From the NCBI GenBank assembly GCA_029933565.1, contig JAOZNY010000002.1, forward strand, positions 1 to 41,969: a stretch of 41,969 nucleotides of DNA, in the 5' to 3' direction. The notes below the pieces were generated by a model, which made no database searches, was not told where the DNA came from, and saw nothing but the letters and a program-made list of their open reading frames with translations. The first letter of the stretch is position 1. Every line of letters starts with the position of its first letter. Source of the stretch: Bacteroidales bacterium (lineage in GTDB: Bacteria; Bacteroidota; Bacteroidia; Bacteroidales; F082). Below, one piece after another: positions 2,630 to 34,650 of this stretch. The position numbers and the translations under genes were made by a program.

Positions 2630-2653
2630 GGCTAAATATAGCCTATTATTTTT
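2629..2653. terminator. Short hairpin plus T-tract between convergent genes
   Basis: aggcta-aata-tagcct (6-bp stem, 2629-2644) followed by attattttt. It lies exactly between the stop codons at 2629 (+) and 2652 (-). Confidence 0.45.
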
Positions 2654-3203
2654 AATGAAGTGCAATAGTAGTAGACCTTTCGGGATGCTTGCCTCTTAGT
2701 CCTTTATAGAAGTTTGTTATTTCTGCCATGTCTTTTTCCATATTACCCGTTGGATAGAACATTTTAGCAACTCCTCCTTTTTTGTCTGTATAATCCATCC
2801 ACCCAAGTGCAATTGGGACATTTGCAATACGAGCAATATGGTAGAATCCTTTTTTCCATTCTTTTACACGGGTTCGTGTGCCTTCAGGGGTAATTACAAG
2901 AATTAATTCATCGTGTTCATCAAACATCTTCGCAATCGATTCAGTCATTCTCATATTTTTTTTCCGGTTAACCGGAATACCACCTATTTTTCTAAGTATA
3001 ACTCCCAATGGAAAAAAGAAAGCCTCTTTTTTTATTAAAATTTTAATGTCGTGATCCAAGTGCCAAAATGCCAACCTGCCAATTACAGTATCCCAGGTAC
3101 TTGTGTGTGGAGCGACAATAAGTACTGCTTTTTTTATATCGTCTGGTATGCGGCCTTTAATATCCCAACCCATCTTTTTTAGAATCCAGCTTGATTTTTT
3201 CAT
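2652..3203 (-). CDS. 1-acyl-sn-glycerol-3-phosphate (lysophospholipid) acyltransferase, PlsC family
   Basis: HX4D acyltransferase motif (APHTSTWD) and the downstream ITPEGTR motif. 183 aa, ATG start. Confidence 0.8.
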   Translation of the reverse strand: MKKSSWILKKMGWDIKGRIPDDIKKAVLIVAPHTSTWDTVIGRLAFWHLDHDIKILIKKEAFFFPLGVILRKIGGIPVNRKKNMRMTESIAKMFDEHDELILVITPEGTRTRVKEWKKGFYHIARIANVPIALGWMDYTDKKGGVAKMFYPTGNMEKDMAEITNFYKGLRGKHPERSTTIALH

Positions 3204-21200: not shown

Positions 21201-22467
21201 TGATTTTGAGAATAATCAGCCCGATGCAAAAAGATGGCAAAAAATAATGAGTGTTCCGGATGATGTAATCTGGAATAAGCGCATTGAGTTGAAATCTCAA
21301 TTGATTAAAGAACTTAAAACTAAACTTAGAAAAGATCTGACTGCAAAAGCAGAAAATCCGAAATTGATTGCCAGTATGCTTTCTAAATTTGATGAGAAGG
21401 CATTGATTATTGGTTTTGCACGTAGGTTTGCAACCTATAAAAGGGCACATTTATTGTTTTCCAACCTCGAAAGACTTGAAGCTATTGTAAATCGCAAAAA
21501 GAAACCAATATTCTTTTTCTTTGCTGGAAAGGCACATCCTAACGATAAAGCAGGTCAGGATTTGATTAAGAGGATAATTGAAATATCGAAGATGCCTCAA
21601 TTTATTGGAAAGATAATTTTTATCGATAATTACGATATGACCATTGGTAAATTACTTACCAGCAGCGTTGATATTTGGTTAAATACGCCTACGCGTCCGT
21701 TGGAGGCTTCGGGCACTAGTGGCGAGAAAGCAGTGATGAATGGCGTGGTCAACTTTAGTGTGCTTGATGGTTGGTGGGCCGAAGGTTATACTCCAGGAGC
21801 CGGATGGGCTGTCGAAGAAACCCGTAGTTATGAGAATCAATATTTTCAGGATGAACTTGATGCTGAAACAATTTATTCTACCCTTGAGAATGATATTTCG
21901 AAAATTTATTATAAGCAAGATGAAAAAGGTGTTTCTGAAAAATGGGTTTCTCACATAAAAAATACAATTGCAAAAATAGCCCCGCATTTTACAATGCAAA
22001 GGATGGTGGAAGATTATTGCAGTAAGTTCTATGGAAAACTATTTGAAAGACAGAAATTAATCTCTCAGAATAATTTTGAGAAAGCACGCGAACTGGTTAA
22101 CTGGAAAAATACTGTTCTGCAAAGTTGGGATAACATTAGCGTAGTGTCGATGCATGTACCTGACGTAGAAAAAGGCCCCGTTGAGTTCGGTACAATGTTT
22201 AATGCCGAAATAGTATTAAACCTGGCTGGTTTAAATAGCGATGATATCGGTGTTGAGATACTTATGGGCAACAAAAAAGACGATGAAGTAAAGGAAGTTA
22301 CTTTTAAGCAGGAACTAGCAGTAATGGTTACTGATGAAGGACAAGCAAAGTATAGTTGTAATTTTTCATTGAAGAATGCAGGAGTTTATGATTATACTTT
22401 CAGGGTTTTTCCAAAGAATAGTTTACTGGCTTACAGAATGGACTTCCCACTTGTAAAATGGCTTTAA
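18256..22467 (+). CDS. Bifunctional fusion: eukaryote-type GT3 glycogen synthase (N-terminal ~545 aa) plus GT35 alpha-glucan phosphorylase (C-terminal ~840 aa)
   Basis: GT3 hallmarks: FETSWEICNKIGGIYTVV, HFHEWMTG, FPSYYEPWGYTPLE. Phosphorylase hallmarks: WWSWN N-terminal region, YFSMEYGL, SGGLGILAGDYLKQASD and the PLP-lysine motif EASGTSGEKAVMNG (Lys codon 21727-21729). It is one uninterrupted 1403-aa frame. Confidence 0.9.
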   Translation: MTKNIKPDFIFETSWEICNKIGGIYTVVSTKAKSIVDQYKENYVLIGPDVWKSTEENPDFIEDKELFSEWKPTAIKKGLKIRAGRWNIESSPKVILIDFTNFFPKKDEIFTKLWEDYKLDSLHGRWDYIEPTIFGYAAGMVVESFSDFYLDDKTVVAHFHEWMTGSGVLYLKENAPQIGTAFTTHATVLGRSVAGNGLPLYDNLETYDAQTMANTFQVKSKHSLESLSAINADAFTTVSSITAKECKQFFGKQPDVITINGFEEKFVPQGNDFEKKRKIARKKAIEIASKLAGRKIGTNALLVLNSGRYEFRNKGIDIFIDALEKLNRDENINREIVAFITVPTSHHEPYNLFKTKGAEVENRFLTHHIHHPEHDPVLNHAYAKQINRDGSKVTLVFVPAYLNGNDKVVNLEYYDFLIGFDLSVFPSYYEPWGYTPLESIAFKVPTITTNYAGFGDWAKSNFKLKEKSVLVIERKEDGDQDAAHKIYERIKGFAKVKDKTKVVEEAKTVCQKALWNDLSENYFEAWGMAAKKAVARVPKKPGIKTTKNSKVEAKITNNTPEWKKILVEPALPEQLEPLKEMAYNLWWSWNSRASDLFASIKPKIWNEIEQNSVLLIEMLSMDDVDKLLNDIRFMKELSEVYAEFKKYMAKADERTNGKIAYFSMEYGLHVSLKIYSGGLGILAGDYLKQASDSNKNLFAVGLLYRFGYFKQVLTHFGEQIADYNAQKFTQLPILPLRDENGDWVVVKVALPGRTVMAKAWQVNVGRIKLYLLDTDTKENSFEDQHITHQLYGGDNENRLKQEMILGLGGIRLINSLGLKPNIYHNNEGHAAFSGLERLRNYIDELGIDFSLAKEIVRSSTLFTTHTPVPAGHDSFEEHLLRAYLPHFSDALQLSWHDFIGLGRFNNNDQNEKFSMSVLATNLSQEVNGVSKIHGRVSREMFAKLYPGYFADELNIGHVTNGVHYYTWTAPVWQQLYRDVFGADFENNQPDAKRWQKIMSVPDDVIWNKRIELKSQLIKELKTKLRKDLTAKAENPKLIASMLSKFDEKALIIGFARRFATYKRAHLLFSNLERLEAIVNRKKKPIFFFFAGKAHPNDKAGQDLIKRIIEISKMPQFIGKIIFIDNYDMTIGKLLTSSVDIWLNTPTRPLEASGTSGEKAVMNGVVNFSVLDGWWAEGYTPGAGWAVEETRSYENQYFQDELDAETIYSTLENDISKIYYKQDEKGVSEKWVSHIKNTIAKIAPHFTMQRMVEDYCSKFYGKLFERQKLISQNNFEKARELVNWKNTVLQSWDNISVVSMHVPDVEKGPVEFGTMFNAEIVLNLAGLNSDDIGVEILMGNKKDDEVKEVTFKQELAVMVTDEGQAKYSCNFSLKNAGVYDYTFRVFPKNSLLAYRMDFPLVKWL

Positions 22468-23145: not shown

Positions 23146-23844
23146 ATGGAAAAAAACCCAACAAAAAGACCTATTAGCCAATGGGCCGAAGACGACCGTC
23201 CGCGCGAAAAGTTGGCTATTAAAGGTAAGTCAGTTTTGTCTGATGCTGAGTTAATTGCCATTTTGATTGGTTCTGGAAACACCGAACAATCGGCAGTTGA
23301 ACTTTCGCAACAGATACTCAAGGATGTTGACGATAATTTAATAGAACTTTCAAAACTCTCAATTACCGACCTTCAAAAATACAAAGGCATTGGTGAAGCA
23401 AAGGCAATAAGCATAGTTGCTGCTCTTGAACTGGGAAAACGCAGGCTTAGCAGTAAGGCTTTGTCGAAGAAAAAAGTAACTTCCAGCAGGGATGCCTACG
23501 ATCTGTTCCTGCCATTTTTAATGGATCGCTACGACGAGGAATTTAGGATGCTGTTGCTGGATCGTTCGAACAAAATAATTAAAAATCTCAGTGTTGGCGA
23601 AGGGGGTTTTGCAGGAACAGTTGCCGACCCCAAAAAGATATTCAAACTAGCCTTGCAGCATAATGCCTCTTCAATTATTCTCGGGCATAATCACCCATCT
23701 AATAATACTTCGCCCAGCGATACAGATATCAGTTTAACAAAAAAAATACGTAGAGCAGGTGAGTCCCTCGATATTTCTGTCCTCGACCACATTATAGTTG
23801 GCAACGACACCTACTATAGTTTTGCCGATGAAGGGGTGATATAA
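23146..23844 (+). CDS. radC: RadC-family JAB/MPN domain protein
   Basis: MEKNPTKRPISQWAEDDRPREKL is the typical RadC N-terminus. It has an HhH region (YKGIGEAKAISI) and a JAMM motif (HNHPSNNTSPSDTD). I chose the ATG at 23146. The track's longer ORF from 22951 (TTG) just reads through the palindrome. Confidence 0.9.
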   Translation: MEKNPTKRPISQWAEDDRPREKLAIKGKSVLSDAELIAILIGSGNTEQSAVELSQQILKDVDDNLIELSKLSITDLQKYKGIGEAKAISIVAALELGKRRLSSKALSKKKVTSSRDAYDLFLPFLMDRYDEEFRMLLLDRSNKIIKNLSVGEGGFAGTVADPKKIFKLALQHNASSIILGHNHPSNNTSPSDTDISLTKKIRRAGESLDISVLDHIIVGNDTYYSFADEGVI

Positions 23845-23962
23845 CTTTGAGGTGAGGAAAGGTTGTTAGATTAGGAAATTGGATTGATGGGATGTTGATG
23901 GGTTTTATTTCCAAAAAAGAAACAGTTTGTTATTGTGAACAACAAGAAAGAATCCACTAATT

Positions 23963-25183
23963 TTAATACAAAAAACCAAATAACCAAAGAGGTATTTTGT
24001 TAAAAATACCTACTTCAATATCGTCGATGGCAAGGAAAGTATTTTCCAACCCTTTTAGTTGAACATCAGATTTATTTTTCCCGCCTATTTCAACTACATG
24101 TTTATTGTTCAATAAAAAGTCACCAGAGGGTGGCGTAGTAATATTATTATTGCTTGCAACCTGACTAAAAAAGAATATTTCGCGTAGAGTACCCTTATTA
24201 ATATTGTATGGCTCAAGGGCATATGCAAGGTTAGTGTTTGCAATATAAAGTTTGTTAGGTTTCCGCATAATCTTGTCGCCAGTAACTTTTTTTGATAGGC
24301 TTCGGATTAGTTCTGCTTTCTCCAGATATGTCATATAATTTAGGAGTGTCCTTTGATCGGTAATACCAATTTTTTTGCCTATGGTCGTTAAGTTTGGGGT
24401 GTATGGAACCGATGTTGCAATTACTGCCAACAACTTCTTCATCTTTTGTACGCTTAAATATGGTATATCAACAACTGCAGGGATGTCAGATTCCATTATC
24501 ACCGTTATTACGTTTTTTAAGCGTTCATAGTATTTGTCCTTATCTTCATCGTAGAATGCAAAATATCCCCATTTAAGATATTCTTGAAATTTTGCAAGTA
24601 TCACTGTCTTTGAACTAATGTCTCTGGCGAGTACAGTATGTTTTTTTAGCAGTTCATGCAGGCTTATTGCCTGATGATCAATTATGTTATTCATTACAAG
24701 GTATTCCCTAAATGACAATCCTGGCAAAAAATATGGGCTTACTCGGCGACTAAGGTCTCCAATACCTTTAATGAGTTGGATGGTTGAAGAACCTGAATAA
24801 ACTATACGGAGTTTTGGGTAACGGTCGTATGAAGCTTTAATTTCCCCCGACCAATCTGCCCTGTCATTTTTAGGCAGATATTTATGTACCTCATCAATAA
24901 ATATATGTCGCCCACCGTATTTTACAAATTTGTCAATTGTGTCAATTAAACTATTAGTATAAAAATATGGGTCGTCAGCAGAAAAGTAGAGTACAGAAGT
25001 ATCACCAGCATCGTAGTTCAATTTTATGTATTGCAGCATTAGTGTTGTTTTACCAACACCTCTGGCCCCTGTAATTTCAATCAGACGTGGTTTCCAATTA
25101 ATTTTGTGATACAATGATCTTTTAAATTCAATTGGTGTTTCGTCCAGTAGTCTGTTGTTTATTTCGTAAAGTACATCCATCAT
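23963..25183 (-). CDS. AAA+ ATPase of the COG1373 type (AAA_14 plus DUF4143)
   Basis: Walker A GARGVGKTT and Walker B HIFIDEVH. The C-terminal region has the winged-helix-like and DUF4143-like layout. The ATG at 25183 (MMDVLYE..) is preferred over the TTG at 25204 because a -7 box sits at 25202-25209. Confidence 0.8.
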   Translation of the reverse strand: MMDVLYEINNRLLDETPIEFKRSLYHKINWKPRLIEITGARGVGKTTLMLQYIKLNYDAGDTSVLYFSADDPYFYTNSLIDTIDKFVKYGGRHIFIDEVHKYLPKNDRADWSGEIKASYDRYPKLRIVYSGSSTIQLIKGIGDLSRRVSPYFLPGLSFREYLVMNNIIDHQAISLHELLKKHTVLARDISSKTVILAKFQEYLKWGYFAFYDEDKDKYYERLKNVITVIMESDIPAVVDIPYLSVQKMKKLLAVIATSVPYTPNLTTIGKKIGITDQRTLLNYMTYLEKAELIRSLSKKVTGDKIMRKPNKLYIANTNLAYALEPYNINKGTLREIFFFSQVASNNNITTPPSGDFLLNNKHVVEIGGKNKSDVQLKGLENTFLAIDDIEVGIFNKIPLWLFGFLY

Positions 25184-25201
25184 TATTTTATTAATGCATT
25201 G

Positions 25202-25209
25202 CAAAGATA
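25202..25209 (-). promoter_or_regulatory. Candidate -7 box (TATCTTTG) for the AAA ATPase
   Basis: TAnnTTTG on the minus strand, 19 nt upstream of the ATG at 25183. Confidence 0.4.
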
Positions 25210-25217
25210 ATTTAAAT

Positions 25218-25295
25218 TGTAATGAGATACAAGAAAAAGCGAATTAAAGTGTAATGCAGTACATATAAAATAATGTTAACACGTAATGAATTACA
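25218..25295. promoter_or_regulatory. Three direct repeats (T/C)GTAATGnnnTACA with exact 32-bp phasing (operator/iteron-like)
   Basis: GTAATG starts at 25219, 25251 and 25283. Each is followed by 3 variable nt and TACA, and flanked by TTAA(A/C) upstream and an A-rich tail. Each box is itself a TGTA-N6-TACA half-palindrome. Confidence 0.6.
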
Positions 25296-25372
25296 ATAAA
25301 TGGAGGCTAGATAATAAACTAAATTGCCAAATAGGGAGGCGAATCACAATATTTCAATTGAATCTCTAGGAA

Positions 25373-28300
25373 CTAAAATGTCTCAAGTTTTATTAATACA
25401 AATAGTTTATTGGAGGTGTTTTTTGCCTGTCCAATTTCTTCAAAACTTAGGTTGTGAATTTTTGCTATTTCCCTAATATTACTTTCTGAAATAAATTCGA
25501 GTTTGTGTTCTGCTTTATTGAAACCAAATTTAGTGGAGAAGAATTCCGTAAGTTTTGTTGCCTTATGTTCTTTTTGTTGCTCTTTGTCACCATCGCGGAT
25601 AATTAGCATTCCTTGTTTATTCAGTTTGTTAATGCACTTTTCCAGCAAGTTGCGTTGTTCCTTGCCAGGAAGGTAGTGCAAAGTGTCTTTTATAATTATT
25701 ACATCTGATTGTTCAATTTCAAAATTAGTAATATCGGCAGTAACAAAATTTACATTTTTATTTTTAATGGCGCAGTTTGCAGCAACGGCAATCTTTTGCT
25801 CATCGTAGTCAACGGCAGTTATCTGGCGCTTTGCCGAAACAAGATTGAGTAAATAATCTAGATAGCCATAACCGCAACCCAAATCAGTTATTTTGCATTC
25901 CCTTGGTATCAATTCATTAAAAATATTGTAATTGTCCTCAATCTTCAGTTTTATTAAAGTGTACCACTCAAGAACCGGCCCTTTATAAAGGTAGTTTTTA
26001 CGAATGTAATCGGCAAAAAATTCAGGGTTTTCAAACTCTTCTCTTACTAGGGCATACTCATCCCTGAAATATTCCTGTACACCAATTGTCTGTTCTTTTA
26101 TGGTTTTACCAAATTTTCCTTCATTTAGGTAAATCTTTGGCAGGAACTTAGTGCGTATGGAACCTCTTTTTAGGAAGAACTCACTTTTCTTCAGTAATTG
26201 GTTTTGCCCATGAATTATTATTGGTTGAATAGGGATATTTAGTTTCTCGGCGAGATAGAAGGCTCCCTTGTGGAAACGTTTTATGAAGCCATTATCGTTA
26301 CGATGTCCTTCGGGGTAAATTACCAGCGAATAGCCTTTCTTAATCAATGGCTCTACTTTTTCCAAAACACTTTCATAGCCCTCGTCCGAGGGAATAAAAT
26401 TGGCATATTTCAACGCTTTGCCATAAACAGGGTTGTTGTAATTTTTGTTGTTGGTAAGTACCAGAACTTTTGGGTTTAGCAACATCATCAGCATCAAATC
26501 GATATGCGATTGGTGGTTAGCAATAATAATTGACGGCTCCGAATAATCTTCCCCCAAGGGATTGATAATTGTTTTTTTTGAAAGTACGTTCATGTAAATA
26601 AGAAACCATGTCATTTTGCTGAAAACAACGTGGAAGATGTATTTCTGTTTGTCTTCATTTAGAGGTATAAGTTTGAAAATAATCGACAGTAAGGTCATAA
26701 AAACAGCACCAAACATAAATGTAAATAGTGAGGCTATTGAAAAAATGAAATCAAGTAAAGTTACAGGCCGGTTTCTTAGACCCATTTTATAACTTACCAG
26801 CCATTTAAAAATAGAAGGTAAAAGAATAAAATTTACGATAACAACACTAAATATCCCAATTATCGACATTAGTGCAATTGACTGAAGCGCTGGGTGTTTG
26901 GCAAAAATTAACACGCCAATTCCAGCCAAAGTAGTAATCATTGAGAGTAGTACCGATACTTTGTAAGATGTAATATCTTTAGTCCCGTATTTGTATCCCT
27001 GCAGCAAACCTCTCATTACAAAAATGCTGTAGTCTATTCCAAGTCCGAAAACAAAACTTAGAATTATAATATTGAATATGTTGAAAGAAATGCCAAACAA
27101 ACCCATTATGCCAACTGTCCAAATCCATGAAATTAAAACAGGCAGCATAGTAATGAGGGTTAGTTCAATTCTTCCGTATGCAATTAAAAGAATTAGGAAT
27201 ACAAGGCCAATAGAAATAAAAATGAGTTTGTTGAAATTGTCATTTAAAATGTTCATAAACTCACTTGTAACCAGTCGTTTGTCAACTATCCAAATATCTT
27301 CTTTTCCTTTAAATGCTTGGTAAACTTTCAAAATATCTTCATTGTTACTGCTTACTTTTAGAATATTGATAACAGCGTCGAGAGTATCGGTTTCAATTAG
27401 GTAATTGCCAATAATTTGATTTAAAGTGGGGTTGCTACTGTTTGCTGAAATAGGGGAATAGTTTTTTTCAACCATTTGCGAAAAGCCTTTAACCGCACTT
27501 GGTTTAAAACCTTTTTGTATTGCCTCATTTTTTAACAGACTGTCAGTTTTTATAAATCTACTACTCCAGAAATCTTTCCATCCTGCAATAAGTTGATGTT
27601 GTTCTTTTTTAGGTTTGAGGATGCTGTTGACTGAAGTTGAACTTTTTATTAAACCCAATGATTTGAGACTGTCAATAATTGAAAGTGCCCGATGATTGTT
27701 CATCATTGCTTCGTCAACACTCTTGCCCGGGCTAACAATGTAAATAGTTTTTCTTGAAACCGAACTAATGCTGTTAAGATCCTTTTCAGCCTGTTGAAGT
27801 TTTGGGCTTAAATAGTTATTCTTCATCATGTCGGCATCGAAGGAAACCTGCTTAGAAGTAAACCAAAAAACTATTGTAAGAGCAATAACAGCAACTTTTA
27901 GCAGTGGTATTTTGTGCAGTTGCCAATTTGCAAGTTTGTCGATTATATTTGGTTTAATTTGTTTTTTTTCTTCAATCTTCTTTCCCAGAAAATGTGGCAA
28001 GACAAGCAAAGAAAATCCTGCGGCTGCCAATACGCTCACAGCAGCAAAAACGCCAAGATCGTTGAGTGCTTTTGAGTTGATGAAAAGCAGGCTTAAAAAT
28101 GCTAATGCTGTTGTAATACTGCTCATTGCAATGGGGGTTGAAACATCTCTGAAAAGAGATTTTACATCAGCGTTCTGCCTAAAATGAGACAAAATATGAA
28201 TGGCATAGTCAATAGAAACCCCTAGTAACACAGAGCCAATTCCCAATGCAATTGCCGAAACCTCATGCACAAATGCTCCCAAAAATCCCAAAGCAACAAT

Positions 28301-29218
28301 TGCTCCCATTGCAGCAGGAATAAACACCAGAACTAAACTTCTTTTTTTTCTAAAGAACAGGCTAATAAAGATTAGTAAAAAGGCAAATGCCAGTGAAACC
28401 GTAAGAATAATATCCTTTTTAATTCTCACAGCATTCCCCATCGAAACAGCCGCATTTCCAAAATAACTTACTTCAATATTTTTCGATTTTGTAAGTTCAG
28501 CAATTAATAAGTCAACTCCATCAAAAAGTTCTTTATTAAGTTGGCTATTGCTGTTGCTTACCGCTGTGGCCAGTATTAAAATATTTTTTCCATCCTTAGA
28601 AATAATAAAACCATTCTTAAGTTCAAAGCCATCGCTAATGTTGAATTTCTGTAATTTTTTTAGGGCAATATTTGTTAGGTGGAGAGGATCTGCTAATATT
28701 GTTTTCTTAGTCGCAAAACCAACAGGGCTTGCTAGTAATTTGTAGTTTGCATCAATAGTTTTTTTTATTTGTTCATTAGTAATTAAGGAATCAATTTGCC
28801 GGTAATCTTCCTCCTGCAGAAAAACCGGAAGATTGTTGTTGAAGAAAACAAGAAGGTCCTGCATTTCTTTATTTCCGGGAGCCTTGTCAATCGATTTGAG
28901 GTGCGATGGGATAAAATTGTTTTCAAGTGAATCAGTAAAAATACGGGCAAACTCAATTAAACCAGAGTTCTCAGATTTTATAGTGCTATCTGAAAAGTGA
29001 ATATTGAAAACAAGTTTGTCGAGGAGTTTTGCATTTTCAAAAACAAAACTCATTTTTCCTATTTTTTCATTTTTTGGTAATACCTTGGAAATATCTTCGG
29101 TGAAATTTAGTTTTAAACCATAGAAAACGGAAATTGCTAAAATCAATAACAGAAGGAAAATTGAGATAATTCTGTTGCGAGAACTGAACTTATATAAAAA
29201 CATGAATAAAGTGCTCAT
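25373..29218 (-). CDS. Trifunctional fusion: MMPL/RND-like predicted exporter plus PlsC-type lysophospholipid acyltransferase plus class I SAM-dependent methyltransferase
   Basis: aa 1-~810: two hydrophobic helix bundles, each preceded by a large soluble loop, as in the COG4258/MMPL layout. aa ~880-1050: HX4D (IIANHQSHIDLML) and VIYPEGHR motifs. aa ~1090-1281: methyltransferase motif I (ITDLGCGYGYL) and the post-I acidic residue (AVDYD). It is a single 1281-aa frame. Confidence 0.85.
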   Translation of the reverse strand: MSTLFMFLYKFSSRNRIISIFLLLLILAISVFYGLKLNFTEDISKVLPKNEKIGKMSFVFENAKLLDKLVFNIHFSDSTIKSENSGLIEFARIFTDSLENNFIPSHLKSIDKAPGNKEMQDLLVFFNNNLPVFLQEEDYRQIDSLITNEQIKKTIDANYKLLASPVGFATKKTILADPLHLTNIALKKLQKFNISDGFELKNGFIISKDGKNILILATAVSNSNSQLNKELFDGVDLLIAELTKSKNIEVSYFGNAAVSMGNAVRIKKDIILTVSLAFAFLLIFISLFFRKKRSLVLVFIPAAMGAIVALGFLGAFVHEVSAIALGIGSVLLGVSIDYAIHILSHFRQNADVKSLFRDVSTPIAMSSITTALAFLSLLFINSKALNDLGVFAAVSVLAAAGFSLLVLPHFLGKKIEEKKQIKPNIIDKLANWQLHKIPLLKVAVIALTIVFWFTSKQVSFDADMMKNNYLSPKLQQAEKDLNSISSVSRKTIYIVSPGKSVDEAMMNNHRALSIIDSLKSLGLIKSSTSVNSILKPKKEQHQLIAGWKDFWSSRFIKTDSLLKNEAIQKGFKPSAVKGFSQMVEKNYSPISANSSNPTLNQIIGNYLIETDTLDAVINILKVSSNNEDILKVYQAFKGKEDIWIVDKRLVTSEFMNILNDNFNKLIFISIGLVFLILLIAYGRIELTLITMLPVLISWIWTVGIMGLFGISFNIFNIIILSFVFGLGIDYSIFVMRGLLQGYKYGTKDITSYKVSVLLSMITTLAGIGVLIFAKHPALQSIALMSIIGIFSVVIVNFILLPSIFKWLVSYKMGLRNRPVTLLDFIFSIASLFTFMFGAVFMTLLSIIFKLIPLNEDKQKYIFHVVFSKMTWFLIYMNVLSKKTIINPLGEDYSEPSIIIANHQSHIDLMLMMLLNPKVLVLTNNKNYNNPVYGKALKYANFIPSDEGYESVLEKVEPLIKKGYSLVIYPEGHRNDNGFIKRFHKGAFYLAEKLNIPIQPIIIHGQNQLLKKSEFFLKRGSIRTKFLPKIYLNEGKFGKTIKEQTIGVQEYFRDEYALVREEFENPEFFADYIRKNYLYKGPVLEWYTLIKLKIEDNYNIFNELIPRECKITDLGCGYGYLDYLLNLVSAKRQITAVDYDEQKIAVAANCAIKNKNVNFVTADITNFEIEQSDVIIIKDTLHYLPGKEQRNLLEKCINKLNKQGMLIIRDGDKEQQKEHKATKLTEFFSTKFGFNKAEHKLEFISESNIREIAKIHNLSFEEIGQAKNTSNKLFVLIKLETF

Positions 29219-30435
29219 GATTTTTGTTCGGTTTTTTTAGAATTGAAAATCCTTATCAAGATATAGGCAATAAATGAGACCCCAATTCCGGCAAACAGCC
29301 CAAGAACCAGACTGCCTGTAACATATTGCAGAATACTATAACCAAACTCATTTAGTGTTTTATAGAAATGTCCATCAAGTACCTGCTGCTTTAACTGACG
29401 TAGAGTCTCAGAGTTGAATTCAACACTATTGTTGAAGAAAAGTCCACCTGTTTTATAACTAAAATAAATTATAAATGGTATTGCAGGCGGTATGCTAACA
29501 TTAGAAAAGGCAAGTACCAGGAACTTATTTAGCCGTAATGCATGAGCCAGAAAAACGGCAATTAGCATTTGAAAGCCCCAAATTGGTGTAAAACCCATAA
29601 AAACCCCAAAGCCCATGGCGGCTGAAATTTTTAAGGGGTTTTCATTGTGGAGCATTATTTGTTCCTTGATCACAGTGGTAAACCTGTTGTTCATCAGGTA
29701 TTTGAATGCCTTTAGGGGAATAATGTATAAATATGTAATTAGAACAAGAAAAGTGTTAAGTATGCTGATCCTTGTGAAATCTTTGAGTGGTTTAAAATGA
29801 CTTACCCTTTCGTCTTCGGGAGGGTAGTAAACTTTAATTGGTATAGGTATTGTTTTTATTTCACTCCAGTTTGATCTTACTAAAACCTCAATTTCAAATT
29901 CGTATTTTGTTGTAAACCACCTAGTCTTTTTATATTTATGTATCGGGTAAAGCCTCATTCCTGATTGTGTATCCGGCAATTTCTGACCAGTTTCTGCCCA
30001 ATACCAAAAGTTTGAAAATTTGTTGGCAAATGTGTTCTTTCCTGGCATTCCTTCGGCTTCAATATTTCGACTGCCAATTAGCAATGCTTCGGGCTGCTCC
30101 TGATGTTTCTTTAATAAAACTTCAATGTCTTCAGTGTAATGCTGCCCGTCAGAGTCGATGGTGATGGCATAGTCAAAGCCACTGCTTAATGCAGCATCAA
30201 ATCCTTTTCTAATTGCGTAGCCTTTGCCTTTATTTTGAGTGTAACTTATTGTTTTAATGCCATTAATGCCTTTTAAAACTTCTAATGTTTCGTCGGTTGA
30301 ACCATCGTTTATAACAAAAACATTTTTGCATATTTGTAGTGTTCCACTAACAACTTCACCAATTGTTTTGGCATTGTTGTAGGTGGGGATAATTACACAA
30401 ACCTTATTGTTGTTTTTGCTTAAACTTTCTGTCAT
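29215..30435 (-). CDS. GT2 glycosyltransferase (polyprenyl-phosphate/DPM1-GtrB-like) fused to a DUF2062 membrane domain
   Basis: VCVIIPTYNNAKTI, NDGSTDET and the DxD-type TIDSDGQH are GT2-A fold motifs. The C-terminal AAMGFGVFMGFTPIWGFQMLIAVFLAHALRLNK...SNVSIPP matches the DUF2062 pattern. Its stop overlaps the next gene's start (ATGA at 29215-29218). Confidence 0.85.
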   Translation of the reverse strand: MTESLSKNNNKVCVIIPTYNNAKTIGEVVSGTLQICKNVFVINDGSTDETLEVLKGINGIKTISYTQNKGKGYAIRKGFDAALSSGFDYAITIDSDGQHYTEDIEVLLKKHQEQPEALLIGSRNIEAEGMPGKNTFANKFSNFWYWAETGQKLPDTQSGMRLYPIHKYKKTRWFTTKYEFEIEVLVRSNWSEIKTIPIPIKVYYPPEDERVSHFKPLKDFTRISILNTFLVLITYLYIIPLKAFKYLMNNRFTTVIKEQIMLHNENPLKISAAMGFGVFMGFTPIWGFQMLIAVFLAHALRLNKFLVLAFSNVSIPPAIPFIIYFSYKTGGLFFNNSVEFNSETLRQLKQQVLDGHFYKTLNEFGYSILQYVTGSLVLGLFAGIGVSFIAYILIRIFNSKKTEQKS

Positions 30436-30465
30436 TAGAGTGTTTTGAACAACTGCAAATCTAAG

Positions 30466-30473
30466 AAAGAAAT
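30466..30473 (-). promoter_or_regulatory. Candidate -7 box (TAGATTTG) for the GT2/MMPL operon
   Basis: TAnnTTTG on the minus strand, 31 nt upstream of the ATG at 30435. Confidence 0.45.
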
Positions 30474-30505
30474 AGAATAAAAAAGCCCTGTTATTTTGTT
30501 TCTAT

Positions 30506-31267
30506 TTATTGCAGAATATCGGGCAAAGCCCATGTATTAATCAACTTTGAATACCGTGATTTTGTGAGTTGGATTAATATTGGTTTTTTAGTTTGATCAA
30601 GCCAAAATGCAGTTTTTACCATATTTTCAGGTGACATAGCCGTACAGCCTGCTGTTGTGCCATTAGGTTTTGCCCAGTTGTGAATAAAGATACAAGAGCC
30701 TGCGCCATTTTTGACTGGGTTGGTATTGTGGTCAACCGTAACGCCCAATTCATAGTAAATGCCCATGGAGGCCATCTTTTCCGACGATTCCCAATCAATC
30801 TTTAATGTGTCATTGGATACTAAGGTGTTGTAGTGTATTGATTTAGCATCGTCAATACACTCAACCATTTCGTTAAGTTGGAGGTAAGGCATTTTTAGTT
30901 CACCAATTTCAATGGCTGTTTTATATCCAAAAATCGAACTCAAGGCAAACACACCTGCAGGGCTTTTTCCGTCCCCTTCTTTTTTTATGGGAAAACCTTT
31001 CGGGTTGTTATCTGAGTGCAGACCACTTCCCCAGCCTAGTCCATTTCTGCCAATGGCGATGGGGATTGCTTCCATTTCAGTTTTCCATTCAGATGATGAA
31101 TCATTACGTTCAAAATAATACATGGTTCCCGTATTGGATTCGGCAGATGCCGTTAAAACCAAGATCGCCTGTTGGCAGGAAGCAGGGATTGGACTATTTA
31201 TTTGAGAGTAAGCAAAAAGGCTTGAAAATATTATGATTACTGTAAGTAGGAGATATTGTTTTTTCAT
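30506..31267 (-). CDS. Secreted L,D-transpeptidase (YkuD) catalytic-domain family protein
   Basis: The H...GC active-site arrangement (GSCIFIHNWAKPNGTTAGCTAM). The ATG at 31267 gives a clean signal peptide (MKKQYLLLTVIIIFSSLFAYSQ). The track start at 31294 is a GTG extension. Confidence 0.7.
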   Translation of the reverse strand: MKKQYLLLTVIIIFSSLFAYSQINSPIPASCQQAILVLTASAESNTGTMYYFERNDSSSEWKTEMEAIPIAIGRNGLGWGSGLHSDNNPKGFPIKKEGDGKSPAGVFALSSIFGYKTAIEIGELKMPYLQLNEMVECIDDAKSIHYNTLVSNDTLKIDWESSEKMASMGIYYELGVTVDHNTNPVKNGAGSCIFIHNWAKPNGTTAGCTAMSPENMVKTAFWLDQTKKPILIQLTKSRYSKLINTWALPDILQ

Positions 31268-31403
31268 GAGTATTTGTTTTTTAATGGATGACACTGTGCC
31301 ATGGTCGCTTTAATTATTTTCAATAATTATACTTATGAGTAATTAAAGTAAAATAACCTCTATGCTTTGAATAAATTGCGTAGTGTATAAATTCGTATAA
31401 GCA

Positions 31404-31823
31404 TTAAGCATGGATTAACTTCACAAAACTTTCTGGAGTTAATACCCCAATCTCACTTTTCTTATAATCTTTAACATTTCGGGTAATAATTACTTCTATT
31501 TCTCCATAGTTTATTGCGGCGAAGTTTTGTAAAGCATCTTCAAAGTCTTTAAATTCTGAATTAAGTGCTTTTTCTATCACTAGTCTGTCTATTTGCAGAA
31601 CATGTGTTATTGTCAATAATTGCTTTATTTTTTCAATAACTTTTTCATGTTTTGCAGTCCTACGCAATAAATAGTAAGTATTGCTAATTATTACTGGTGT
31701 AATAAATCCGTCCAGTAGTCCTCGTTCACAAAGACTTAGTATTATTGATGAATTGTCTGAATGAGGTTTTCTATCGAAGAAAAAGTCAAGTATTACATCT
31801 GTGTCAATCAATACTTTTTTCAT
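31404..31823 (-). CDS. PIN-domain toxin (VapC-like)
   Basis: The N-terminal MKKVLIDTDVILDF is typical of PIN domains, with later acidic residues (DFEDALQ) and 139 aa. There is an ATGA overlap with the upstream antitoxin gene. Confidence 0.85.
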   Translation of the reverse strand: MKKVLIDTDVILDFFFDRKPHSDNSSIILSLCERGLLDGFITPVIISNTYYLLRRTAKHEKVIEKIKQLLTITHVLQIDRLVIEKALNSEFKDFEDALQNFAAINYGEIEVIITRNVKDYKKSEIGVLTPESFVKLIHA

Positions 31824-32068
31824 ACCATGTATTTTTCAGATAGTCCTTTTGATAATTCTTTTTTATAATCAAAAGATTCAGGTGATTTGAAACTTCCACG
31901 TAATGAATTTACAAGAGGTGAAATATCTTCAACAATTCTCTTTTCCGTTGTAATGGCTTTAAGATAATTTTCTATTATATCTGATAAACTACGTCCTTTC
32001 TCTTTCGCATATGATTTTGCTTTTTCGATAACGGACTGTTCGATTGTCAATGTTAATTTTGTATTCAT
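31820..32068 (-). CDS. Antitoxin of the PIN toxin (DUF6364/RHH-like, tentative)
   Basis: 82 aa. The N-terminal TKLTLTIEQSVIEKAKSYAKEKGRSLSDIIENYLK is a ribbon-helix-helix-like pattern. It overlaps the toxin start by 4 nt. Confidence 0.65.
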   Translation of the reverse strand: MNTKLTLTIEQSVIEKAKSYAKEKGRSLSDIIENYLKAITTEKRIVEDISPLVNSLRGSFKSPESFDYKKELSKGLSEKYMV

Positions 32069-32093
32069 GAGTCAATATTTTATATTATACGTG

Positions 32094-32101
32094 CAAAGAT
32101 A
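32094..32101 (-). promoter_or_regulatory. Candidate -7 box (TATCTTTG) for the PIN toxin-antitoxin operon
   Basis: TAnnTTTG on the minus strand, 26 nt upstream of the ATG at 32068. It is embedded in repeated CGTGCAAA words (32090-32097 and 32118-32125). Confidence 0.4.
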
Positions 32102-32296
32102 ATATAAATAACACGTCCGTGCAAATTTAATTTAGTTTACACGTGTTTCTTATGCTCAGCGTTAAGGGTTGACACTATTACCAGTTGGCCTTCTCCAGAA
32201 GTATGTTTTTTGTATGTTCAAATTTACAATTCATTTTCTTCAATAACAGTTATTTGATTTTCTTGTTAACCTTTTTACTTTTTCTACGGCAAAATT

Positions 32297-32329
32297 AAGG
32301 GCAGCCCGACCAATGCCGGACTGCCCTTT
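32297..32329 (-). terminator. GC-rich hairpin downstream of the phosphate transporter gene
   Basis: aagggcag...ctgccctt is an 8-bp perfect outer stem with inner cc(c)g/cgg pairing. On the minus strand it is followed by taattttgcc. It lies about 24 nt after the stop at 32353. Confidence 0.6.
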
Positions 32330-32352
32330 GAAATAATTTCTATTTTCAAAAC

Positions 32353-34650
32353 TTATTTTGAATTTGATTGATAGTCAGAAAAATCTCGATACGATTTATA
32401 AAGGTTAACTAAATTCAAACTCATATTTCTCCACTCATCAATAAGGTGCAAGTAAAGCACACTATTCTTAGTACCCGCTTTTGCAGCTTTTAGTCTACGG
32501 AACTGAGTCTTCGTATTCTTTTTAATGGCATCCATAAGTTTAGTCTGAGAATTCAGAATAGCCTCTTCATCCGCCTGTGCCGGATTTTTAATACTAAGTA
32601 CAATTCTTGATGATAAATCAGCTGATAAAGTACAGAGATCTTTCAACTCATCAATTTGTTCCTTTAAAAGAGGCTTGTGATTATTGTCGACATGCTCAAT
32701 TACAGGTTTGATTATGAAAGTGGCATTATGCATAATTTCACGTAAATAGTCAAGTACCTGTACAAAGTAAAAATCTGTATCGGTGTCGTCTCTAAGTTTG
32801 TTAATTATAACGCCTAAATTATCCTTTAAATATTTAGTGCGGCTTGTAACTGAGGCTATTTCTTTCTTAGAGGCCTTTAGTCCTTTAAGATCTTCTTTTT
32901 CCATGTTCTTGATAACAGCCTTTAATTGCTTAACAACAACCTCCAGATTTTTGGTAATTGTTTTAGCAGACTTCTCAACAATGGTGTTATCCGAAACATC
33001 TTCAATCTCATTATCTTCAATTTTATTATTTTTATTCTTGTGATGAATATGAGTTCGGTAAGCAACATAAATTACTACTCCAACCATTGCTATAATTGCA
33101 TAAAAGCCACCTGCATTTAAGATTAAAACGATTATAAATGCTGCAATAAATGCTGTAAGTGCTGTAAGAAACCAGCCACCTACCACTGCAATTACACCGG
33201 CAACTCTATAAACAGCACTTTCCCTTCCCCATGCATTATCGGCCAACGAGGTGCCCATGGCCACCATAAATGTTACATAAGTTGTTGATAGGGGTAATTT
33301 TAAAGAAGTTCCAAATGCTATTAGAATACTTGCAACCACCAGGTTGACAGATGCCCTGATGAGGTCAAAGGCCGGTATCTCATCTTGTTTTTTAACATCT
33401 ACTTTCAAGGGCTCAAATTGTTTATTCGCCCAGTTAATTAAAGAATCAGGCAGCACTTTTGATATTCCATTGTTAATATTGATGCCTGTCCTTACCATTG
33501 ATCTGGAAATTACTGTAGGCTGAAATCTCTCATCTCCCATTCCCTGACGGCTAAGATCCAGTGATGTTTTAACTACAGATTTAGCCTTTTTGGAGAAGAA
33601 AAGAGTTAATACCATTATCAGTCCAGCTAAAATTAGGAATAAAACAGGCGTTGCCACCTTACCACTCATAGAAACCATTAACAAATCATCGGGATTAACT
33701 GATGGGTCGGCCATCCAGGCCATAAATGATGAATATCCTGCCAAAGGAACACCAATAAAGTTTACAAGGTCGTTTCCTGCAAAAGCCATAGCCAATGAGA
33801 AAGTACCAACAAGAACCACTAGTTTAAGAATATTCAGTTTAAAAAACCACTGGAATATTTGTAGGAATATTGTCCAACCAATAAAACTGATTGCCATAAT
33901 TTGCCATGTGTTAGCAACAAACCAATCTTTAAGTTCTGGGGTCATAAATGAAGCTCCTTTGGCACCTTTGATAAAAATAAAAAAGGTAATTATTGAGAAT
34001 GCCAATCCACCCCAAATAGCACCAAACCACTTAATTCTTACTTTATAATTGAATGAAAACACAAGTCGGGTGAAATACTGAATTATGGCTCCAACAGAAA
34101 AGGCTACAATAACCGAAAGAAAAATCCCGGAAATAATAGCCAGTGCCTTGGAAGTATTTATAAAGTCGGCCACATTTATTTCGCTAGTAATATCCCGTAA
34201 CATATTATTATCGACCATAAATTGTTTTATGGGTAATAAAGATTCGGGTGAACCCCACATAAGTTTTACGGTAGCCATACCTACAGCAGCACCTAAAAGT
34301 TCAAAAACAATTGATACGGTTGTGGATGTTGGCATGCCCAATGTATTAAAGCCATCCAGTAGGATTACATCAGTAATCATTACTGCTAAAAATATGAGCA
34401 TTATCTCCGAAAAATAAAACATTGAAGGATTAAATATCCCTTTACGGGCTACTTCCATCATTCCCTGAGAAAAAACAGCTCCAAACAAAACACCAAAAGC
34501 AGCAATAATCATTATTGTCCTGAATGAGGCAACCTTTGATCCAATTGCTGAGTTTAAAAAATTCACAGCATCGTTGCTAACTCCAACAATAAGGTCGGAA
34601 ATAGCAAGTAGTACAAGAATAATTACAAGTACTAAGTAAATGGTTTCCAT
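32353..34650 (-). CDS. PiT (PHO4) family inorganic phosphate transporter with a long C-terminal helical (PhoU-like) cytoplasmic domain
   Basis: Duplicated PiT signature (GVSNDAVNFLNSAIGS near the N-terminus, AGNDLVNFIGVPLAG mid-protein). About 540 aa are membrane-embedded, followed by ~220 aa of charged helical sequence. Confidence 0.85.
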   Translation of the reverse strand: METIYLVLVIILVLLAISDLIVGVSNDAVNFLNSAIGSKVASFRTIMIIAAFGVLFGAVFSQGMMEVARKGIFNPSMFYFSEIMLIFLAVMITDVILLDGFNTLGMPTSTTVSIVFELLGAAVGMATVKLMWGSPESLLPIKQFMVDNNMLRDITSEINVADFINTSKALAIISGIFLSVIVAFSVGAIIQYFTRLVFSFNYKVRIKWFGAIWGGLAFSIITFFIFIKGAKGASFMTPELKDWFVANTWQIMAISFIGWTIFLQIFQWFFKLNILKLVVLVGTFSLAMAFAGNDLVNFIGVPLAGYSSFMAWMADPSVNPDDLLMVSMSGKVATPVLFLILAGLIMVLTLFFSKKAKSVVKTSLDLSRQGMGDERFQPTVISRSMVRTGININNGISKVLPDSLINWANKQFEPLKVDVKKQDEIPAFDLIRASVNLVVASILIAFGTSLKLPLSTTYVTFMVAMGTSLADNAWGRESAVYRVAGVIAVVGGWFLTALTAFIAAFIIVLILNAGGFYAIIAMVGVVIYVAYRTHIHHKNKNNKIEDNEIEDVSDNTIVEKSAKTITKNLEVVVKQLKAVIKNMEKEDLKGLKASKKEIASVTSRTKYLKDNLGVIINKLRDDTDTDFYFVQVLDYLREIMHNATFIIKPVIEHVDNNHKPLLKEQIDELKDLCTLSADLSSRIVLSIKNPAQADEEAILNSQTKLMDAIKKNTKTQFRRLKAAKAGTKNSVLYLHLIDEWRNMSLNLVNLYKSYRDFSDYQSNSK

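Follow-up and report, generated by a model that had tools for sequence, protein, structure and literature searches.

Two adjacent genes in the window (the whole stretch of 41,969 bp that was analysed, from an uncultured Bacteroidales bacterium sampled by metagenomics) bring together glycosyl, acyl and methyl transfer with an MMPL-type exporter. The question raised by this locus is whether the two genes form a self-contained module for a membrane lipid, as the earlier note suggested, or belong to a larger pathway. The pair is already catalogued as flxT-flxU and is not a new stand-alone module. Judging by architecture, gene order and published annotation, on which the identification rests, the two genes are probably flxT and flxU of the flexirubin-type (aryl-polyene) pigment pathway, detached from its polyketide core.

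The locus is summarized in Table 1. The two minus-strand ORFs described in the earlier note are both present, and the flxT stop codon overlaps the flxU start codon in an ATGA at 29215-29218. Pfam supports each of the four domain assignments that had been made by eye for the two proteins. The motifs NHQSHID, YPEGHR and DLGCGYG are likewise present, at aa 901, 968 and 1112 of the flxU-like protein. The pair is flanked by the YkuD-like gene and by an AAA_14/DUF4143 ATPase gene (Pfam).

Table 1. Features of the flxT-flxU-like locus, in window coordinates
Feature	Position	Strand	Basis
flxU-like gene (1281 aa), trifunctional fusion	25373..29218	-	ORF + Pfam
Class I SAM methyltransferase domain (aa 1107-1222)	25553..25900	-	Pfam
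PlsC/lysophospholipid acyltransferase domain (aa 893-1002)	26213..26542	-	Pfam, motifs
Two long hydrophobic helices (about aa 816-880)	26579..26773	-	Equivalent to the PlsC N-terminal two-helix membrane anchor
MMPL/RND transporter module (aa 1-810)	26789..29218	-	Pfam MMPL, NCBIfam, PDB, ApeM
flxT-like gene (406 aa)	29215..30435	-	ORF + Pfam
-7 promoter element TAGATTTG, Bacteroidota-type	30456..30463	-	20 nt upstream of the flxT ATG
YkuD-like periplasmic protein gene	30506..31294	-	Pfam YkuD 1.8e-7; probable start ATG at 31267

The flxT-like protein starts with a Glycos_transf_2 domain (aa 13-163, 1.2e-22, window 29947-30399) carrying the DSD motif at aa 94. It is followed by one TM helix near aa 221-239 and by a DUF2062 membrane domain (aa 256-401, 2.8e-24, window 29233-29670). 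The DPM1/GtrB/ArnC/PpgS-type enzymes, which transfer a sugar to a lipid phosphate, combine a GT-A fold and a DxD motif with membrane helices behind them, a layout that the flxT-like protein may share. The best NCBIfam matches are the lipid-phosphate glycosyltransferases of the AglJ, PpgS and ArnC types, all scoring well below the family cut-offs. Among PDB sequences the best match is chondroitin synthase (2.9e-8), and DPMS 5mlz, ArnC and GtrB are also found.

The flxU-like protein is more complex, as three modules follow each other in a single polypeptide. The first is detected by Pfam MMPL in two stretches (4.9e-20; 72 bits against a cut-off of 20.5). By NCBIfam and PDB its closest RND relatives are the HpnN/HAE3-type lipid transporters and MmpL: the best NCBIfam matches are HAE3 (TIGR00921) and HpnN (TIGR03480), and the PDB match is HpnN (5khn/6wu0). 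HAE3, HpnN and BstA all fall far short of their cut-offs (HAE3: 122 bits, cut-off 352). Hydropathy predicts several TM helices and two large periplasmic loops, consistent with a 12-TM RND layout. An Asp-Tyr pair in the TM8-12 bundle (D729-Y730) is invariant in 113 full-length homologues. Transporters of the HpnN/HAE3 and MmpL types transfer lipids from the inner membrane to the outer. To our knowledge, HpnN and MmpL proteins lack C-terminal domains of the PlsC and methyltransferase kinds.

The second module is an acyltransferase (PF01553, 2.8e-21) with the motifs H902-x4-D907 and E970-G-x-R973, both invariant in the 113 full-length homologues. PlsC of Thermotoga maritima, a 1-acyl-sn-glycerol-3-phosphate acyltransferase (PDB 5kym), aligns to aa 816-1042 and has the same HX4D and EGxR motifs, fold and two-helix monotopic anchor; only the flxU-like domain is fused behind an RND transporter. 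The AF2 model of aa 640-1281 (pLDDT 86, pTM 0.82) predicts five TM helices followed by the two anchor helices, and in Foldseek this model superimposes on 5kym with a TM-score of 0.82 on the target, the predicted membrane anchor included. The third module is a class I methyltransferase (1.5e-14) with the residues D1112-x-G-C-G-x-G1118 and D1137, preceded by a conserved helical cap (aa 1040-1103).

The pair is strongly conserved. More than 800 homologues of the fusion were found, which remain full-length down to 40% identity. The 113 full-length homologues share the same domain architecture, and NHQSHID, YPEGHR, DLGCGYG and the GT2 DSD are invariant among them. A GT2-DUF2062 gene lies directly upstream of the fusion in all 27 genome loci with upstream DNA. 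Pairwise dN/dS of the flxU-like gene against its relatives is 0.04-0.09 in all comparisons with an estimable dS; by region, it is 0.06-0.12 for the MMPL, PlsC, methyltransferase and C-terminal parts, and in the anchor and inter-domain regions the synonymous sites are saturated. To judge from its sequence, the window copy is functional and under strong purifying selection (dN/dS about 0.05-0.1). Because of the saturation, however, the selection measured on flxU mostly predates the detachment of the pair.

The pair also appears to have its own promoter. The -7 box TAGATTTG named in the earlier note is real, but it had been placed at 30466-30473 and is found at the position in Table 1. By itself, the pattern TAnnTTTG does not exceed the chance expectation for the window (76 occurrences against 65 +/- 7). 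In 29 of 33 orthologous loci, however, it precedes the flxT start by 15-31 nt, also at loci with lolB2 directly upstream, and it is therefore a conserved promoter element. It is proposed that flxT-flxU is its own transcription unit.

The flexirubin clusters of Chitinophaga pinensis and Flavobacterium johnsoniae contain the counterparts of both genes, where FlxT is the DUF2062 protein and FlxU the trifunctional fusion (PMC12968099 Table 3; PMC3992019). Both architectures, the gene order and the tight coupling in flxT-flxU of C. pinensis and in Fjoh_1079/Fjoh_1078 of F. johnsoniae are as in the window. The link to aryl-polyene and flexirubin tailoring and export genes had thus been drawn correctly in the earlier note. 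The four activities had been thought to be separate genes in flexirubin clusters; instead, the same two proteins are the norm there (PMC12968099, PMC3992019). Orthologues of the pair occur within loci that also encode TAL, KS, ACP, LolA2, LolB2 and FlxV/W/Y, and are placed there between lolA2/lolB2 and flxV-W-Y. The order T-U-V (desaturase-like)-W (Ntn hydrolase)-Y (CoA ligase) is found in L031, L033 and 10 other loci; it matches the published flexirubin cluster and supports the orthology. More distant orthologues lie inside full flexirubin/APE clusters. In the closest relatives of the window's locus, a 220-aa gene adjoining flxT scores above the cut-off for the NCBIfam family 'flexirubin biosynthesis protein LolB2' (NF053540, cf. 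PMC11885536). What FlxT and FlxU do is merely guessed in the literature searchable here ('export by yet unknown mechanisms'), in line with the earlier remark that such fusions lack experimental characterization.

The window differs from the C. pinensis and F. johnsoniae clusters in that its pair and the YkuD-like gene stand apart from all other cluster genes within 42 kb. As had been noted, scaffold-synthesis genes are absent from the window: across the 41,969 bp, Pfam assigned none of the remaining ORFs to KS, ACP, KR, dehydratase, LolA or any further member of the cluster, and phmmer with 36 reference cluster proteins gave zero matches to any ORF. The same holds on a smaller scale for L041 and L028, which, like the window, have no recognizable cluster gene within about 10 kb.

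From this absence it could be argued that YkuD-flxT-flxU makes and exports a methylated glycophospholipid from an ordinary or non-aryl-polyene lipid, without a polyketide core. In favour of this, the block is preceded by a conserved promoter of its own, and purifying selection on it is strong. It was separated from the core on at least two occasions and came to lie beside different genes upstream in the window and in L041. In principle, its PlsC, GT2 and RND activities could work on common precursors of phospholipids. (The window and L041 fall on different branches of the NJ tree, and L028 is a third detached case.) The genomic context of the relatives makes this reading rather unlikely. In the closest syntenic relatives (L035/36, L037, L042 and L046, fusion 71-75% identical), the pair lies directly downstream of a TAL-KR-KS-ACP-LpxL-like-methyltransferase-deacetylase-LolA2-LolB2 core; in L046 the core is the same and the contig ends inside flxU. 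The fusion thus stands beside a KS/ACP core in these related genomes, which largely corresponds to the finding, a fusion always next to such a core, that the earlier note had given as undoing its own proposal. Downstream, the window and these relatives share AAA_14, RadC, S20, a 1403-aa glycogen enzyme, GH57 and GT4, carried by L035/36 and L037, partly by L039/40, and by L042 as far as RadC, the only one visible there. Every orthologue with visible wider context occurs in a genome or locus with flexirubin/APE genes, the genes have been reported solely in flexirubin loci (PMC3992019, PMC12968099), and the measured selection mostly predates the detachment.

The detachment itself is uninformative, since split clusters exist. 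In the complete 4.62-Mb chromosome OZ223471.1 of a related genome, the pair is located at 1.10 Mb (L020) and TAL-KR-KS-ACP-LpxL-like-MT at 3.38-3.40 Mb, about 2.3 Mb apart. A self-contained module is therefore not supported, given the adjacent cores of the relatives, the orthologues in full clusters and this split core. CLF, dehydratase and CoA ligase are missing from the surroundings of even the 'intact' loci in the window's lineage. Most likely flxT-flxU works with a pigment core located at another site of the window's genome, where the presence of this core is assumed. It is proposed that the detachment arose in a repeated fragmentation of the cluster in a Bacteroidales/Marinilabiliales-like lineage.

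The YkuD-like gene, listed in the earlier note as an L,D-transpeptidase-like neighbour, is also linked to the cluster. Its product shares 62% identity with the C-terminal half of a LolB2::YkuD fusion that is encoded between lolA2 and flxT in the sister genomes L039 and L040, and 68% with the product of a stand-alone gene upstream of flxT in L041. The gene belongs to the cluster as a lineage-specific accessory and was kept with flxT-flxU; its dN/dS is 0.14.

The locus could also be a recently orphaned remnant, in which the core upstream of the YkuD-like gene was lost by deletion or rearrangement and the three genes are intact for lack of time. Rearrangements concentrate upstream of flxT, where toxin-antitoxin pairs mark the junction, and the relatives are truncated stepwise, from L035 (full) via L039 (without TAL-KR-KS) to L041 and the window (without everything). 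At the junction, the window has PIN_3/DUF6364 and L037 has ParE. Such recent loss is nevertheless quite improbable: flxT-flxU of the window contains no frameshifts or stops, all catalytic residues are intact, and the protein divergence between the window copy and P0002, the nearest relative, amounts to 18%, with a dN/dS of 0.09. L041 is likewise detached and intact at 73% identity, which suggests long-term retention if these arrangements are old.

Finally, a chimeric metagenome join upstream of flxT might hide the core. Between 23.75 and 34.6 kb of the window, identity to L034, an independent contig, is 99-100%; it then drops abruptly to about 77%, which points to strain mixing or recombination in the sample; the gene order of L034 remains that of the window despite this drop. 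The YkuD-flxT junction lies well inside the identical segment, though, and is reproduced in both assemblies. The independent sample L041 has the same YkuD-flxT-flxU-AAA_14-RadC order, and an assembly artefact is thus very improbable.

The proteins of the pair can be compared to the Ape set of E. coli CFT073 and Xenorhabdus doucetiae. ApeM matches the MMPL module of flxU (phmmer 4e-19, in two stretches covering both TM bundles), ApeD its PlsC domain (2e-10 over aa 896-1016), and the N-terminal GT2 half of E. coli ApeJ the GT2 domain of the flxT-like protein (7e-35). The Ape proteins are separate polypeptides, whereas the flxU-like protein is a fusion. ApeJ carries an LpxL-like acyltransferase half where FlxT has DUF2062; in the Bacteroidota relatives this acyltransferase is a separate core gene (6e-22 to the ApeJ half). 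The remaining genes of the core in Bacteroidota correspond to ApeB, ApeQ, ApeR/O, ApeE/F, ApeK and ApeL.

Genetics tied ApeD and ApeJ to lipid anchoring: the apeD and apeJ mutants accumulate unattached intermediates, the APE lipids are APE-GalNAc-1-phosphate-diacylglycerol, and ApeM was proposed as the exporter (PMC8253772; bioRxiv 10.1101/2020.12.19.423268). From homology to this system and from solved structures, we infer a mechanism, including its substrates and the order of its steps. On the cytoplasmic side of the inner membrane, the PlsC domain of FlxU would acylate a lysophospholipid-type acceptor, with the two-helix motif directly after TM12 as its inner-leaflet anchor. The DPM1/ArnC/GtrB-like GT2 of FlxT would use a nucleotide sugar to attach a hexosamine to the lipid phosphate, generating a sugar-1-phosphate-glycerol linkage as in the Xenorhabdus aryl-polyene lipids. 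The polyene acyl chain would be built on ACP by core genes elsewhere in the genome and esterified to the lipid anchor by the separate LpxL-like acyltransferase. Subsequently, the HpnN-like RND module of FlxU would take the completed lipid out of the inner membrane and pass it to periplasmic LolA2/LolB2 for transfer to the outer membrane. As chemically described, flexirubin is a polyene-dialkylresorcinol ester without sugar or phospholipid, and the proposed glycophospholipid anchor in Bacteroidota is therefore an extrapolation from Proteobacteria.

The fused methyltransferase would add a methyl group at a position other than the aryl ring. It is without a counterpart in the Ape set, a point that, like the DUF2062 domain of FlxT, counts against the proposed pathway. 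Its profile retrieves just generic small-molecule methyltransferases from the PDB, the best being phosphoethanolamine N-methyltransferases (1.6e-10), and Foldseek with the predicted structure agrees. An equivalence to ApeB, the aryl-ring methyltransferase, could be ruled out. No phmmer match to ApeB was found at E<=10, and the ApeB orthologue is the separate Methyltransf_2 gene in the core of the relatives (1.9e-115).

Both genes of the pair were recovered as the earlier note had read them from the sequence: the two reading frames and their ATGA stop/start overlap are there, Pfam returned every domain assigned to either protein (see the table), and the FlxU motifs that had been quoted lie at residues 901, 968 and 1112. 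The GT2 domain of FlxT contains DSD at residue 94. In NCBIfam, where all matches fell below the family cut-offs, this domain was nearest to the lipid-phosphate glycosyltransferases AglJ, PpgS and ArnC, and the transporter of FlxU was nearest to RND lipid transporters of the HAE3/HpnN type. The closest relatives of this GT2 domain include enzymes of the DPM1/ArnC/GtrB type, which make the sugar-1-phosphate-lipid bond. More than 800 homologues of the FlxU fusion were found, and those with as little as 40% identity still have its full length (1276-1295 aa). They come from Bacteroidales, Marinilabiliales, Lentimicrobiaceae, Chlorobiota-labelled MAGs and Ferruginibacter; their source names are 'MMPL family transporter' or '1-acyl-sn-glycerol-3-phosphate acyltransferase'. 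The residues H902/D907, E970-G-x-R973, D1112-x-G-C-G-x-G1118 and D1137, as well as the RND pair D729-Y730, are unvaried in 113 homologues and present in the window protein.

Coordinates of the genes and segments discussed, in the window and in the loci (L) compared with it
Feature	Sequence	Position	Strand	Composition or context
flxT	window	29215..30435	-	406 aa; GT2 aa 13-163, DUF2062 aa 256-401 (Pfam)
flxU	window	25373..29218	-	1281 aa; MMPL (two stretches), PlsC-type acyltransferase aa 893-1002, class I methyltransferase aa 1107-1222 (Pfam)
YkuD-like gene	window	30506-31294	-	stand-alone
YkuD gene	L039	7337-8686		LolB2::YkuD fusion
YkuD gene	L040	2634-3983		LolB2::YkuD fusion
YkuD gene	L041	7706-8464		stand-alone
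Toxin-antitoxin pair	window	31404-32068		PIN_3 + DUF6364
ParE + small ORF	L037	8051-8574		between lolB2 and flxT
Segment 99-100% identical to L034	window	~23,750-34,650		RadC/AAA_14 through PHO4
AAA_14/DUF4143 ATPase	window	23963-25204		between flxU and radC
1403-aa single ORF	window	18256-22467		glycogen synthase (Glycogen_syn/GT5) + DUF3417 + alpha-glucan phosphorylase domain
GH57 glycoside hydrolase	window	15198-16775		C-terminal FliG_C domain (1.9e-11)
PlsC-family acyltransferase	window	2652-3203		183 aa, separate gene
Flanks of the pair	L018	6250-8588, 17765-22811		include an unannotated 393-aa protein
Methyltransf_32 gene + CorA gene	L020	16003-17175		between flxU and deacetylase-lolA2-lolB2

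The identity of the pair follows from the genomic context of its relatives. In L031 (Ferruginibacter) and L032 (a 4.6-Mb Bacteroidota chromosome) it lies inside a complete aryl-polyene/flexirubin-type cluster with an ABC-2 permease, thioesterase, KS, ACP, KS, chain-length factor, deacetylase, LolA and ApeI-like dehydratase. The pair is followed by an amine-oxidase/desaturase-like gene and an Ntn-hydrolase (AAT), and after these, in L031 only, by genes for a 4'-phosphopantetheinyl transferase, a CoA ligase and a tyrosine ammonia-lyase. In 11 other loci, too, the genes run T-U-desaturase-Ntn hydrolase-CoA ligase. This order agrees with that of the published flexirubin clusters, where FlxT (Fjoh_1079) is listed as 'DUF2062 domain-containing protein', FlxU (Fjoh_1078) is the trifunctional fusion, and the next genes are given as FlxV, the desaturase, FlxW, the Ntn hydrolase, and FlxY, the CoA ligase (PMC12968099 Table 3, after Schöner et al. 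2014, PMC3992019). The pair is thus identified as a known, named component of flexirubin-type clusters, its role being assigned by homology; a literature search found no experimental study of FlxT or FlxU.

The window itself contains no scaffold-synthesis genes, as the earlier note had stated. This was confirmed by protein search and Pfam: 36 reference cluster proteins gave zero matches at E <= 1e-6 against every window ORF of at least 60 aa, and the remaining ORFs encode peptidases, glycogen-metabolism genes, RadC, S20, PHO4, MatE and similar. The same note took this as the mark of a self-contained module for tailoring and exporting a lipid, a reading that the comparison with relatives does not support. 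The downstream flank of the window (AAA_14 ATPase, RadC, S20, the glycogen synthase/phosphorylase, GH57, GT4) is shared by its closest relatives, namely L035/L036 (fusion 71% identical), L037 (75%) and L042, which shows RadC before the locus ends. Directly upstream of flxT, these loci encode TAL-KR-KS-ACP-LpxL-like acyltransferase-Methyltransf_2 methyltransferase-polysaccharide deacetylase-LolA-220-aa protein, and L046, whose contig stops inside flxU, has a core identical in kind. The 220-aa protein matches NCBIfam NF053540 'flexirubin biosynthesis protein LolB2' above cut-off; lolA2 and lolB2 are reported from flexirubin loci only (PMC11885536). At the corresponding place the window has the YkuD-like gene, a PIN_3/DUF6364 toxin-antitoxin pair, PHO4 and a prolyl oligopeptidase.

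In the neighbour-joining tree, the window and P0002, its nearest relative, are sister to L039/40 and L041, and among the members of this small clade the cluster is shortened step by step. The L039 locus is without TAL-KR-KS; in L041 the YkuD-like gene is preceded by cbb3 oxidase genes and a short-chain dehydrogenase, and the upstream flank of the window is different again. A third, unrelated detached case is L028, with no cluster gene within reach of the locus. The cluster is breaking up in this lineage, and the window instance is one detached copy. Even those loci of the lineage that count as 'intact', which have regulators upstream of TAL, encode one KS only and lack a chain-length factor, dehydratase and CoA ligase, so that the pathway is multi-locus there in any case.

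What detachment means can be seen on the complete chromosome OZ223471.1 (4,622,690 bp). There flxT-flxU lies at ~1.10 Mb (L020), with deacetylase-lolA2-lolB2 3-5 kb downstream; the tailoring half is itself interrupted. The TAL-KR-KS-ACP-LpxL-like-methyltransferase block is found at 3.38-3.40 Mb (L047), ~2.3 Mb from the pair. The 4.84-Mb chromosome with L023 also has a cluster-type KS, detected with the KS of L007. The KS of L035 used as query gave mostly close relatives among its best 120 matches and none from the chromosomes sought with a detached pair. It is probable that the core is encoded elsewhere in the genome of the window organism. That the pair works as an autonomous module is unlikely: a detached pair need not be an autonomous one, as OZ223471.1 illustrates, and the pathway of the lineage is spread over several loci even where the cluster looks intact. 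Lone GT2-DUF2062 and 'trifunctional MMPL' genes should be read as the anchoring/export unit of a possibly split flexirubin/aryl-polyene pathway, and contiguity-dependent BGC callers will miss or truncate such split clusters.

Three further loci, L003, L004 and L018, were considered as isolated pairs and dropped after Pfam analysis of the L018 neighbours. On either side of the L018 pair lie genes for a KASIII-like (darB-like) protein, BtrH_N/DUF4872, an ACP, a sulfotransferase and a B12-radical-SAM enzyme. Since L003 and L004 have the downstream ORF layout of L018 and an ACP match, all three were treated as part of a lipid/pigment locus. This locus, from a Chlorobiota/Bacteroidales-labelled clade, may be a variant pigment/lipid cluster, perhaps a sulfated one.

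The pair itself is held together closely. In all 27 genome loci with upstream DNA, the GT2-DUF2062 gene (58-67% identity) is directly upstream of the fusion. The -7 box TAGATTTG reported upstream of flxT exists, at 30456-30463, ~10 nt away from where it had been placed. A TAnnTTTG element is found 15-31 nt upstream of the flxT start in 29 of 33 loci, with or without a preceding cluster gene. In the AT-rich window the motif alone is not above chance (76 found, 65 +/- 7 expected), and it is considered a promoter element because of its conservation across loci, not its frequency. Taken together, the invariable pairing and the upstream element define the pair as a conserved transcription unit. A scan for terminators and sigma-70 promoters around the operon gave nothing above shuffled expectation.

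Nothing in the window copy points to decay. Against relatives with estimable dS, dN/dS of flxU is 0.04-0.09; by region it is 0.06-0.12 for MMPL, PlsC, methyltransferase and C-terminus, the anchor and inter-domain regions being saturated. The YkuD-like gene gave 0.14, and dS of flxT is saturated. As synonymous sites are saturated overall, the selection measured dates mostly from before detachment. A recent orphan, a pair that has lost its core, is quite improbable given the intact catalytic residues and the low dN/dS.

The YkuD-like gene, listed in the earlier note as an L,D-transpeptidase-like neighbour, is more than a chance neighbour. In L039/L040 a 449-aa LolB2::YkuD fusion lies between lolA2 and flxT, its C-terminal half 62% identical to the window protein, and flxT of L041 follows a stand-alone YkuD that is 68% identical. 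The stand-alone form has a signal peptide in the window and in L041, and the HxnGC catalytic motif looks intact. In one small clade, then, the genes for flexirubin export are associated with a protein of the L,D-transpeptidase fold.

Toxin-antitoxin genes occur at the breakpoint upstream of flxT in the window and between lolB2 and flxT in L037, which suggests that this junction is prone to insertion or rearrangement. L034 (an independent ENA contig, ERZ27227324 k141_1734460), from the same sample as L037, is 99-100% identical to the flxT-flxU part of the window; an assembly artefact as the source of the arrangement is hardly credible. The near-identical segment covers flxU, flxT, YkuD and the toxin-antitoxin pair. 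At ~34.65 kb identity falls abruptly to ~77%, the order S9 peptidase, MatE, TatA, RNase H-like being kept. Either an 11-kb segment was recently exchanged by recombination between two co-occurring populations, or the assembly is chimeric. Two KS proteins from this sample were examined, P0140 (L037 contig) and P0144 (L046); both contigs carry their own flxT-flxU, and neither gave a core contig assignable to the window organism.

In the confident AF2 model of FlxU aa 640-1281 (pLDDT 86, pTM 0.82), five TM helices are followed by two long helices, the PlsC domain, a helical cap and a Rossmann methyltransferase in that order. Superposition of the modelled PlsC domain on T. maritima PlsC gave a TM-score of 0.82 and took in the two-helix monotopic anchor (sequence alignment aa 816-1042). 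The model supports a location of both enzymes on the cytoplasmic face beside the second TM bundle of the transporter, a predicted position from which the product could be passed to the RND module. For the fused methyltransferase, profile and fold searches gave only generic small-molecule class I methyltransferases.

The E. coli CFT073 APE cluster proteins were compared by phmmer. The MMPL module of FlxU matches ApeM (4e-19), its PlsC module ApeD (2e-10), and FlxT GT2 (aa 10-231) the N-terminal half of ApeJ (7e-35); the separate Bacteroidota core genes match ApeJ (LpxL-like, 6e-22) and ApeB (Methyltransf_2, 1.9e-115). The same catalytic modules are therefore allotted differently among polypeptides in the two phyla. 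ApeJ joins GT2 to an LpxL-like domain, whereas FlxT joins GT2 to DUF2062 and the LpxL-like enzyme is separate; ApeM and ApeD are separate, whereas their equivalents are fused in FlxU. The fused methyltransferase was ruled out as the ApeB equivalent, as it gave no phmmer match to ApeB and the separate core gene did. It would be an additional activity for which the Ape pathway, as characterised, has no equivalent.

The Xenorhabdus pathway ends in APE lipids, in which the polyene is esterified to GalNAc O-6 and the anomeric carbon of the sugar is linked to diacylglycerol phosphate. ApeD is proposed to acylate a lysophospholipid, ApeJ to attach first the sugar, then the polyene, and ApeM with LolA/LolB-like proteins to export the product (bioRxiv 10.1101/2020.12.19.423268). 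Late unattached intermediates build up in E. coli apeD and apeJ mutants (PMC8253772). Given the lipid-phosphate-type glycosyltransferase and PlsC domain in flexirubin clusters, the true Bacteroidota end product may be a lipid conjugate that is larger than the flexirubin ester of the textbooks. That YkuD-flxT-flxU autonomously makes and exports a methylated hexosamine-phospholipid anchor even without an aryl-polyene core is doubtful; 'flexirubin' tailoring genes would then form an independent outer-membrane lipid-remodelling system. It is more likely that Bacteroidota 'flexirubin' clusters make APE-lipid-like glycophospholipid conjugates, with the FlxU methyltransferase acting on the head group.

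Other window genes deserve brief mention. The AAA_14/DUF4143 ATPase occupies the same site in L035/36 and L041 and is missing there in L037, L038, L039 and L001; from this patchiness it is taken as an insertion present in some loci only and without relation to the pigment genes. The separate PlsC-family gene, with weak likeness (35% over 111 aa) to Syntrophaceae locus L030, is probably a housekeeping gene unrelated to flxU. The glycogen ORF is kept in relatives at 77-82% identity, and the odd pairing of GH57 with FliG_C is conserved in L035-L037 and L040.
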